Assembly: GCF_003334305.1 (NCBI RefSeq)
Contig: NZ_QOWS01000020.1
From: Escherichia coli
GTDB lineage: Bacteria > Pseudomonadota > Gammaproteobacteria > Enterobacterales > Enterobacteriaceae
DNA length: 64,000 bases
Direction: 5' to 3' (one strand)
Within the stretch, counting starts at the first letter, position 1. The number at the start of each line of letters is the position of its first letter. Positions 39,973 through 52,115 of the stretch are shown piece by piece. The notes below the pieces were generated by a model, which saw only the letters and a list, made by a program, of their open reading frames with translations, was not told the origin of the DNA and did not search any database. Both the position numbers and the translations under genes were made by a program.

Positions 39973-39986
39973 TAACGCCGTTATTA

Positions 39987-40016
39987 AAAAGCCTGCCATC
40001 TGGCAGGCTTTTTTTA
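39987..40016 (+). terminator. rho-independent terminator of glyQS
   Basis: aaaaaGCCTGCCatctGGCAGGCttttttt read directly. Confidence 0.85.
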
Positions 40017-40189
40017 TTATCGCTAAATAATACAGCAACCTTTAATAATCTTCTGCTGAATAAAGATTATCTCATATATTAATTTTATGAGGTTTTTTTA
40101 GGATTATATCAAGGAGAAGAAACAAACTTATTAAGCTAGAATAGCCACGGGTGCTTGAGACTGTTTGTCTCAGGTATTCACCGAAAGGC

Positions 40190-40260
40190 AGACAGAGAAA
40201 AGCCCCACCTGACTATAAATCAAAGTGAGGCTACCCTATGCCTGAACACCATAAGGTTAG
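40190..40260 (-). ncRNA. sokA: presumptive Sok-type antisense RNA of the hokA locus (approximate position, opposite the mok start / hok leader)
   Basis: Placement inferred from hok/sok family architecture only; ends not determined from sequence. Confidence 0.25.
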
Positions 40261-40534
40261 CCTCTTACTCGTTGGAAATCAACACAGGGGGCTGGGAATG
40301 CCGCAGAAATATAGATTACTTTCTTTAATAGTGATTTGTTTCACGCTTTTATTTTTCACCTGGATGATAAGAGATTCACTGTGTGAATTGCATATTAAAC
40401 AGGGGAGTTATGAGCTGGCGGCATTTTTAGCCTGCAATTTAAAAGAGTTAGAGTCTTCGGCGGGAAGTTATTCCCGCCTTTCTTACGGCGTTGCGCATTC
40501 TCATTGCACCCAAATTTATTTTTCACAAAAATAA
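40238..40534 (+). CDS. mokA: mok-type upstream reading frame, in frame with and encompassing hokA
   Basis: ATG 40238 with SD gtgagg 8 nt upstream; uninterrupted frame through hokA. Confidence 0.5.
   Translation: MPEHHKVSLLLVGNQHRGLGMPQKYRLLSLIVICFTLLFFTWMIRDSLCELHIKQGSYELAAFLACNLKELESSAGSYSRLSYGVAHSHCTQIYFSQK
40298..40534 (+). CDS. hokA: Hok-family type I toxin; frame open for 78 codons, with no stop at the usual ~50-codon position
   Basis: MPQKYRLLSLIVICFTLLFFTWMIRDSLCELHIKQGSYELAAFLAC... from ATG 40298; first in-frame stop TAA 40532-40534. Confidence 0.7.
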   Translation: MPQKYRLLSLIVICFTLLFFTWMIRDSLCELHIKQGSYELAAFLACNLKELESSAGSYSRLSYGVAHSHCTQIYFSQK

Positions 40535-40580: not shown

Positions 40581-40612
40581 ATAAAAAAATCCCCGCCAAA
40601 TGGCAGGGATCT
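40581..40612 (-). terminator. cspA intrinsic terminator (hairpin plus T-tract on minus strand)
   Basis: Minus strand reads TCCCTGCCatttGGCGGGGAttttttt just 3' of cspA stop. Confidence 0.65.
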
Positions 40613-40637
40613 TAGATTCTGTGCTTTTAAGCAGAGA

Positions 40638-40850
40638 TTACAGGCTGGTTACGTTACCAGCTGCCGGGCCTTTAGCGCCGCTTTCGATGGTGAAGGACAC
40701 TTTCTGACCTTCGTCCAGAGATTTGTAACCATCGTTCTGGATAGCAGAGAAGTGTACGAACACGTCTTTAGAGCCATCGTCAGGAGTGATGAAGCCGAAG
40801 CCTTTGTCAGCGTTGAACCATTTTACGATACCAGTCATTTTACCGGACAT
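40638..40850 (-). CDS. cspA: major cold-shock protein CspA
   Basis: 70 aa [21 protein letters not shown]... with RNP1/RNP2 motifs. Confidence 0.95.
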
Positions 40851-41046
40851 AGTGTATTACCTTTAATAATTAAGTGTGCCTTTCGGCGATATGGCGTGCT
40901 TTACAGATTTTGAAGCGTTAAAGGAATGTGCACTACGAGGGGTATCAACGATAACTCTTGAAGGGACTTGCCTTACTACACTGCTTTAATGGTCTGTACG
41001 TCAAACCGTTGATGTGCATTAAGCCACGCATTGGCGGGTGATGCAA
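40851..41046 (-). promoter_or_regulatory. cspA: cspA promoter (-35 TTGCAT at 41041-41046, -10 CTTAAT at 41018-41023, AT-rich UP region upstream) and 159-nt 5' UTR with cold-box / thermosensor leader
   Basis: Minus-strand sequence ...TTGCATcacccgccaatgcgtggCTTAATgcacatcaACGGTTTGACGTACAGACC... matches the known cspA promoter and leader. Confidence 0.85.
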
Positions 41047-41130
41047 CAATTATTTTTCATATTTATGATTAATCGGTTGGAAAACGGTCCTGTCATCAGG
41101 ACCGTAAACAGCAATAAAGTGGATAAAAGT

Positions 41131-41421
41131 CTATTCCATCAACTGCTTACTTAATGCCGGGTTGGCTTGAATCAAACGCATCAATTTTAGTTCGGCACTT
41201 GAAGGCTTCACGCGTCTGGATTCCCATTCCTTTACCATGGCGACTGATACGCCCAAAACCCGGGCGAAATCATCGATTTTTAACCCTGTCCCTTTTCGTA
41301 ACTGCTCAATTTCGGTACAGGACGTTGTTCTGTGCGTCAGGGTAATTTTCTGCGTTTCATCTTTAAAAACAATCTGTTCCAGGCTGCTCAACAGCTCATG
41401 CATTGGATCTTTATATTCCAT
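41131..41421 (-). CDS. yiaG: XRE-family HTH transcriptional regulator
   Basis: 96-aa ORF; C-terminal HTH (LRKGTGLKIDDFARVLGVSVAMVKEWE). Confidence 0.8.
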   Translation of the reverse strand: MEYKDPMHELLSSLEQIVFKDETQKITLTHRTTSCTEIEQLRKGTGLKIDDFARVLGVSVAMVKEWESRRVKPSSAELKLMRLIQANPALSKQLME

Positions 41422-50423: not shown

Positions 50424-52115
50424 ATGAGATACATCAAATCGATTACACAGCAGAAGCTGAGCTTTTTGCTTGCAATCTATATTGGCCTTTTTATGAATGG
50501 CGCGGTTTTTTATCGCCGCTTCGGCAGCTATGCGCACGATTTTACCGTCTGGAAAGGCGTTTCTGCCGTTGTTGAACTGGCCGCCACCGTACTGGTGACC
50601 TTCTTTTTACTACGTCTTCTATCGCTGTTTGGCCGCCGCAGCTGGCGTATTCTGGCGTCGCTGGTGGTGCTCTTTTCCGCAGGTGCCAGCTATTACATGA
50701 CCTTCCTTAATGTGGTCATTGGTTATGGCATCATCGCTTCCGTCATGACCACCGATATCGACCTGTCAAAAGAAGTTGTTGGTCTGAACTTTATTCTCTG
50801 GTTAATCGCCGTTAGTGCATTGCCTCTTATCCTTATCTGGAATAACCGCTGTCGCTACACCTTGCTCCGACAACTGCGAACCCCAGGGCAGCGTATTCGC
50901 AGCCTGGCGGTCGTCGTACTGGCGGGTATTATGGTTTGGGCACCGATTCGTTTGCTGGATATCCAGCAGAAGAAAGTGGAGAGGGCGACCGGCGTTGATT
51001 TGCCGAGTTATGGCGGTGTCGTAGCGAACTCTTATCTGCCATCAAACTGGCTTTCTGCGTTGGGGCTGTATGCCTGGGCGCGGGTCGATGAATCTTCCGA
51101 TAATAATTCATTGCTTAATCCGGCGAAGAAATTCACTTATCAGGCACCGCAAAACGTTGATGACACTTATGTCGTGTTTATCATCGGTGAAACCACGCGT
51201 TGGGACCATATGGGCATTTTCGGCTATGAGCGTAATACCACGCCGAAACTGGCCCAGGAGAAAAATCTGGCGGCGTTCCGTGGTTACTCCTGTGATACCG
51301 CAACCAAACTCTCACTGCGTTGCATGTTTGTACGTCAGGGGGGCGCGGAAGATAATCCGCAGCGCACATTAAAAGAACAGAACATTTTCGCGGTTCTGAA
51401 GCAGTTAGGATTCAGTTCTGACCTCTACGCTATGCAGAGCGAAATGTGGTTCTACAGCAACACGATGGCGGACAACATTGCTTATCGTGAGCAGATTGGT
51501 GCGGAGCCACGTAATCGTGGCAAGCCGGTAGATGATATGTTGCTGGTAGACGAAATGCAGCAATCGCTAGGGCGCAACCCGGATGGTAAGCATCTGATCA
51601 TTCTGCATACCAAAGGTTCGCATTTTAACTACACCCAGCGTTATCCGCGTAGCTTCGCGCAGTGGAAGCCGGAATGTATTGGTGTTGATAGCGGCTGTAC
51701 CAAAGCGCAGATGATCAACTCCTATGACAACTCGGTGACCTATGTGGATCACTTTATCTCCAGCGTGATTGATCAGGTTCGCGATAAGAAAGCGATTGTG
51801 TTCTACGCAGCTGACCACGGTGAGTCAATTAATGAACGCGAGCACCTGCACGGCACGCCGCGTGAACTGGCACCGCCGGAGCAGTTCCGCGTACCGATGA
51901 TGGTCTGGATGTCAGATAAATATCTGGAAAATCCGGCCAATGCTCAGGCATTTGCGCAGCTGAAAAAAGAAGCCGACATGAAAGTGCCACGCCGTCATGT
52001 AGAGCTGTACGACACCATCATGGGTTGTCTTGGCTATACTTCACCGGATGGTGGAATTAACGAAAACAACAACTGGTGTCACATCCCGCAGACAAAAGTG
52101 GCAGCGGCTAACTAA
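50424..52115 (+). CDS. eptB: Kdo2-lipid A phosphoethanolamine transferase
   Basis: Start at ATG 50424 ([16 protein letters not shown]); N-terminal TM domain plus sulfatase-like periplasmic domain; 563 aa. Confidence 0.85.

Follow-up and report, generated by a model that had tools for sequence, protein, structure and literature searches.

The window analysed here is a 64,000-nt stretch of the Escherichia coli chromosome, in which yiaG, cspA, hokA and glyS follow one another as they do at the cspA locus of K-12 MG1655. The interval 40851..41046 lies directly upstream of a 70-aa open reading frame whose product is E. coli CspA. A preliminary description, made from the sequence alone, had read the cspA promoter and thermosensing leader in this interval, next to the hokA toxin locus. 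The adjacency of cspA and hokA was confirmed by an Rfam sok match at 40149..40300 and by the K-12 synteny. All motif strings quoted in that description are present; they read on the reverse complement only, and their minus-strand location had been left unstated. The features of the control region and gene are collected in Table 1.

Table 1. Positions of the cspA control elements, mRNA structural elements and gene in the window, from upstream to downstream along the transcript.
Feature	Coordinates	Strand	Details
AT-rich UP region	41047..41070	-	AATCATAAATATGAAAAATAATTG, 87.5% A+T; directly upstream of -35; identical to K-12; downstream edge 41047, far edge approximate (~41070)
-35 hexamer	41046..41041	-	TTGCAT; TTGC invariant in cspA, cspB, cspG and cspI
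TGn extended -10	41026..41024	-	TGG; read from the sequence, immediately 5' of the -10
-10 hexamer	41023..41018	-	CTTAAT; TTAAT invariant in the four cold-inducible paralogues
Transcription start (probable)	41009..41010	-	A at 41010 (160-nt UTR) or A at 41009 (159-nt UTR)
cspA 5' UTR	41010..40851	-	100% identical to K-12; RF01766 positions 1-160
Cold-box hairpin	41007..40991	-	6-bp stem GGUUUG/CAGACC, loop ACGUA; Rfam helix 4-9/15-20
Cold-box 11-mer	41003..40993	-	TGACGTACAGA; exact match
Arm pairing with SD and AUG, closed fold	40937..40918	-	mRNA nt 74-93; Rfam consensus
Predicted alternative cold-box partner	40907..40893	-	UCUGUAAAGCACGCC; mRNA nt 104-118; UTR-only folds
Translation initiation region	40866..40848	-	mRNA nt 145-163; SD AAGG 40863..40860, AUG 40850..40848
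cspA CDS	40850..40638	-	70-aa ORF, ATG at 40850..40848; product E. coli CspA
Downstream box	40838..40825	-	ATGACTGGTATCGT; within codons 5-9; AAAATGACTGGT invariant in the four paralogues
Coding-region arm, closed fold	40819..40782	-	mRNA nt 192-229; pairs with UTR nt 26-70 (40985..40941)
cspA intrinsic terminator	40613..40586	-	12-pair stem with 6 GC pairs, then T-run (terminator scan)

The 290 nt 5' of the ATG (41140..40851) were aligned base by base with K-12 MG1655 and were 100% identical, so the earlier claim of an exact match to the characterised cspA promoter and leader holds. The same alignment, which had been proposed as the check, gave zero substitutions in the cold box or the hexamers. 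Over the 581 nt compared, the window differs from K-12 cspA (b3556) at only two places, and the flanks and the full Rfam match are shared. One difference is synonymous (GAC/GAT; C in the window, T in K-12) at 40764, mRNA nt 247. This base is unpaired in the predicted folds, both alleles give the same predicted structure, and the window base is the Rfam consensus. The other is a T-run beyond the cspA terminator that is 1 nt longer in the window. The protein is identical to that of b3556. The control region, judged by its sequence, is the textbook E. coli cspA control region: real, ordinary and already known. No evidence against the cspA identification was found.

Mitta et al. are said to have reported in 1997 that cspA requires an UP element. 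By its composition and its identity to K-12, the segment upstream of the -35 hexamer would qualify as such an element. The UP region had been placed within 40851..41046 by the preliminary description; it is present and AT-rich, but lies beyond 41046. The two hexamers named there, TTGCAT and CTTAAT, agree with those of PcspA, whose -10 is non-consensus at -12/-11 (PMC2613000). The same source states, citing Phadtare and Severinov 2005, that the TGn motif is needed for PcspA transcription. In the window, the PcspA elements TTGCAT, CTTAAT and TGn were all found, with a 17-bp spacer that ends in TGG. Agreement of the hexamers with the sigma-70 consensus is weak (3/6 and 4/6), and a plain sigma-70 consensus scan of the minus strand found no promoter. 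It is therefore as a copy of the characterised promoter, and not by consensus, that PcspA is identified here.

The cspA UTR has been given as 160 nt (PMC6386945) and as 159 bases with a conserved cold box and a downstream box (PMC6719143). Since the window matches K-12 here and the first position of the Rfam model falls at 41010, transcription probably starts 159 or 160 nt 5' of the ATG. The 159-nt leader of the preliminary description is thus correct when counted from 41009, and becomes 160 nt from 41010. The cold box quoted there, TGACGTACAGA, was found exactly and is identical to K-12. Only one exact copy of the 11-mer UGACGUACAGA occurs in the window; it lies close to the start of the UTR. 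We take UGACGUACAGA to be the conserved 11-nt cold box as published, and have likewise presumed the published wording of the upstream box. A conserved cold box is confirmed in two papers (PMC6719143, PMC9411577), the second of which places it at 37°C in a 6-bp stem-loop at the 5' end of the mRNA. This hairpin was predicted in all of our full-length folds. When the exact cold-box string was sought in the literature, the only match was a T7 template primer for cspA mRNA, GGTTTGACGTACAGACC (PMC2948425); the primer confirms the 5' end used experimentally and leaves the cold box undefined. Downstream boxes are described in PMC6719143 and PMC6386945.

Two further stretches on the minus strand, 41329..41339 and 51327..51337, match the cold box at 10 of 11 positions, and one of them lies inside yiaG. 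They were set aside as chance-level matches. In a shuffle control that allowed one mismatch, the 11-mer gave a mean of 0.56 matches, and three or more matches appeared in 2 of 100 shuffles.

A covariance-model scan with RF01766 (cspA thermoregulator) matched 41010..40583 on the minus strand over the entire model (1-428 of 428, not truncated). The score was 501 bits against a gathering score of 78 (E 8.5e-143), which is far beyond chance. The 3' end of the mRNA lies near 40583, the end of the model. All 124 of the 124 Rfam consensus pairs are canonical in the window, including helices 74-80/157-163 and 87-93/145-151 and the pairs between the coding-region arm and the UTR. By every sequence-level test applied, the element belongs to RF01766 and to PcspA. 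Because the consensus pairs UTR nt 26-70 with CDS nt 192-229, and nt 74-93 with the SD and AUG, the Rfam consensus structure appears to represent the closed form.

We folded the full-length mRNA and a series of its 5' fragments (Table 1 gives the paired segments). In ViennaRNA predictions for 5' fragments of 137-187 nt, nt 4-18 pair with nt 104-118, and this pairing replaces the cold-box hairpin. On these predictions, nt 104-118 may be what the cold box pairs with when its hairpin is not formed. For fragments of 137 and 160 nt, the predicted fold is essentially unchanged between 10 and 37°C. At 187-200 nt, the SD is open at 10°C (probability unpaired 0.43-0.45) and closed at 37°C (0.02-0.04). 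Fragments of at least 230 nt are predicted to be closed at 10 and 37°C alike. For the full-length mRNA, equilibrium folding gave the closed form throughout 10-42°C, with an unpaired probability of at most 0.02 for the SD and AUG and at most 0.01 for the SD at all temperatures. Nearest-neighbour folding assigns the UTR-CDS interaction only 6-8 kcal/mol across 10-42°C. Since the full-length fold stays closed and this energy is small, the cold form rests on published probing.

Published work describes two conformers of cspA mRNA, the cold one forming only below about 20°C (PMC6386945, PMC9947658). [quoted passage not shown] Whatever the temperature, fragments of 87, 137 and 187 nt fold in the same way, much like the cold form; the folding pathways part only once the transcript exceeds about 190 nt (PMC6386945, PMC9947658). 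Translation at 15°C needs the UTR together with the region just after the AUG, the UTR alone being insufficient (PMC6386945). The folds predicted here agree with this picture. The published work and the folding together indicate that the thermosensor needs about the first 70 nt of the coding region and operates through alternative folds, probably kinetically trapped.

The window was also aligned with the upstream regions of K-12 cspB, cspG and cspI. The leaders of these three paralogues share with cspA the TTGC of the -35 and the TG-n-TTAAT of the -10. A 5' cold-box block, GGTTTGA..ACAGAC, is common to cspA, cspB and cspG, in which the stem is kept and the loop varies (ACGTA in cspA, AAGAA in cspB, AAAGA in cspG); the cspI cold box failed to align in the four-paralogue alignment. 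The upstream-box core GCCGAAAGGC is common to cspA and its paralogues, and the downstream-box sequence AAAATGACTGGT is invariant in all four. GCC-AA-GGC, 5' of the SD, is invariant or nearly so across the four. The paralogue UTRs are all long, at 145-160 bases (PMC6719143).

If the gene were one of the cspA paralogues (cspE, cspB, cspG or cspI), its leader would not be the characterised one. Such a reading draws on the PGAP label of the matching CDS, which in most records is 'cspE: transcription antiterminator/RNA stability regulator CspE'. However, other records give the name CspA to this very protein accession (WP_000014594.1), the CDS differs from b3556 by a single synonymous base, and yiaG, hokA and glyS also flank cspA in K-12. 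Mean column identity in the alignment with the cspB, cspG and cspI leaders is only 69%. The K-12 alignment refutes paralogue identity, which can practically be dismissed, and the cspE label is an annotation naming artefact. Cold induction might be mainly transcriptional, through a cold-specific promoter or an activator site, with the leader playing a minor part. The unusual architecture of the promoter, with its UP element, TGn and poor -10 (PMC2613000), and the binding of FIS and H-NS across -167..+150 (PMC4877382) would fit this. On the other hand, cells in early growth contain abundant CspA at 37°C (PMC9947658), and a secondary source (bioRxiv 10.1101/289264) gives the cspA mRNA a half-life of about 12 s at 37°C and a rise in transcription of only about 3-fold. 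We regard a mainly transcriptional explanation as highly improbable.

The preliminary description had called the leader a clean RNA thermometer directly visible in the sequence. Rfam does class the family as a thermoregulator. If it were a classical melting ('zipper') thermometer of the 5' UTR, the 196 nt of 40851..41046 would sense temperature alone, and in favour of this, UTR nt 74-93 do pair with the SD and AUG, both in the Rfam consensus and in our folding. The polarity is nevertheless wrong, because cspA is translated better in the cold whereas a zipper opens on heating. The SD of the full mRNA stays paired from 10 to 42°C, the UTR alone does not suffice at 15°C (PMC6386945), and the two folds diverge only beyond the length of about 190 nt given above. 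An equilibrium thermometer model was rejected on the full-length folding, which contains no temperature-dependent opening between 10 and 42°C. For a melting-type 5'-UTR element we thus found no predicted SD opening, in a gene that is cold-induced and requires its coding region, and this reading is scarcely credible. Direct visibility was therefore an overstatement: the closed fold at 10-42°C and the published CDS requirement make thermosensing unreadable from the 196 nt given, and half of the switch (40782..40819) is in the coding region, outside that interval. Those CDS partner sequences are identical to K-12, so the functional conclusion that the leader is intact stands. We read cspA as an alternative-fold, length-dependent switch, opposite in polarity to a melting thermometer.

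For such an alternative-fold switch, the following sequence of events is proposed. A sigma-70 promoter with weak hexamers (TTGCAT-17-CTTAAT) would depend on the TGn extended -10 and the AT-rich UP region, and would yield a 428-nt monocistronic mRNA with a 159/160-nt leader. The nascent transcript would adopt the open fold, in which the UTR is folded on itself, nt ~104-118 pair with the cold box and the initiation region is easier to reach. Once the CDS has been transcribed, the closed fold would be thermodynamically preferred; here the cold box would sit in the 6-bp 5' hairpin, nt 26-70 would pair with nt 192-229, and nt 74-93 would lie on the SD and AUG. On the simplest reading, heat would let the co-transcriptional fold rearrange to the closed fold, which would dominate at 37°C. 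Below about 20°C the open fold would be retained, most likely as a kinetic trap, and its retention would allow efficient ribosome loading. Cold would also stabilise the cspA mRNA. We infer that kinetic trapping accounts for the cold form, and that the fold predicted for the UTR alone is the counterpart of the published cold form. Our own analysis contributes the identity, the Rfam match, the compatibility of the consensus pairs, the length-dependent predicted switch and the conservation in E. coli; the function of the promoter elements, the two probed conformers and the mRNA stabilisation come from the literature. We consider the account as a whole, a standard cspA promoter with a 159/160-nt leader and a two-fold mRNA switch, nearly certain.

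Related thermosensors differ from this arrangement in several ways. The cspB and cspC thermoswitches of Staphylococcus aureus resemble cspA in having alternative, mutually exclusive 5' UTR folds that favour translation in the cold (PMC8034633). Their sequences are presumably unrelated to that of E. coli cspA, and the E. coli switch involves the coding region. The melting thermometers ROSE and fourU, like cspA, have the SD and AUG base-paired in one state. Unlike them, cspA has the opposite polarity, is not confined to the UTR, and has an SD helix with no predicted melting at 10-42°C.

Several observations were made around the gene. The CDS at 40638..40850 (-) is called 'cspE' in most RefSeq (PGAP) records though it is cspA, which is a naming inconsistency and not biology. 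On the upstream side, an inverted repeat at 41084..41105 (-), ACGGTCC-(8 nt)-GGACCGT followed by TTTT, lies immediately after the yiaG stop and borders directly on the UP region of cspA. Probably it terminates yiaG transcription; the terminator scan did not report it. Just downstream of glyS, a sub-threshold Rfam STnc370 match at 39980..40050 (-) (38.4 bits against a gathering score of 54, E 0.003) sits at a bidirectional hairpin and is probably only a terminator-like stem-loop.

The hokA gene, convergent with cspA, is the only non-standard feature nearby. The hokA/sokA locus occupies 40149..40450 (+), with the sok RNA (RF01794) matched at 124.9 bits; it is continuous in the window and split by IS150 in K-12 MG1655. 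In hokA (40298..40534, +; ATG at 40298, ORF end at 40534), a T in place of A at 40449 turns the TAA stop into TTA. The 50-aa toxin ORF is thereby prolonged by 28 codons, through a 3' hairpin at 40459..40478 and towards the cspA terminator. Position 40449 is the only difference from NZ_CP027548.1, which carries the common allele, in the 541 nt from hokA to cspA. This 541-nt segment is identical in NZ_CP025856.1, where hokA is flagged as a pseudogene 'missing C-terminus', and was 100% identical in only 1 of 40 evenly spaced genome records. Only 2815 of 5426 genomes have 80% or more of its length in one place, from which disruption upstream of hokA appears common. If expressed, the read-through allele could alter the folding of hokA mRNA or the activity of the toxin, but we think this very unlikely; it is much more likely that hokA is simply a decaying toxin gene.

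Of 5426 complete E. coli genomes, 5423 carry the cspA locus. For the 236 nt that comprise the UP region, promoter and leader, the best match is at least 99% identical in 5402 of these 5423. Among 60 genome records taken in even steps down the match ranking, 47 (about 78%) carry the segment with 100% identity. Three non-identical alleles were inspected; they are altered in the UP region, in the spacer and at UTR positions 83-99 and 137, and their hexamers, TGn and cold box are unchanged. Given identity of at least 99% in 5402 of 5423 genomes and exact identity in about 78%, an intact control region is the default state. The allele of the window is the majority E. coli allele, and nothing in its cspA leader is novel. 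The finding carries little weight beyond annotation: the window is E. coli chromosome with a standard cspA control region, and it serves as a positive control.
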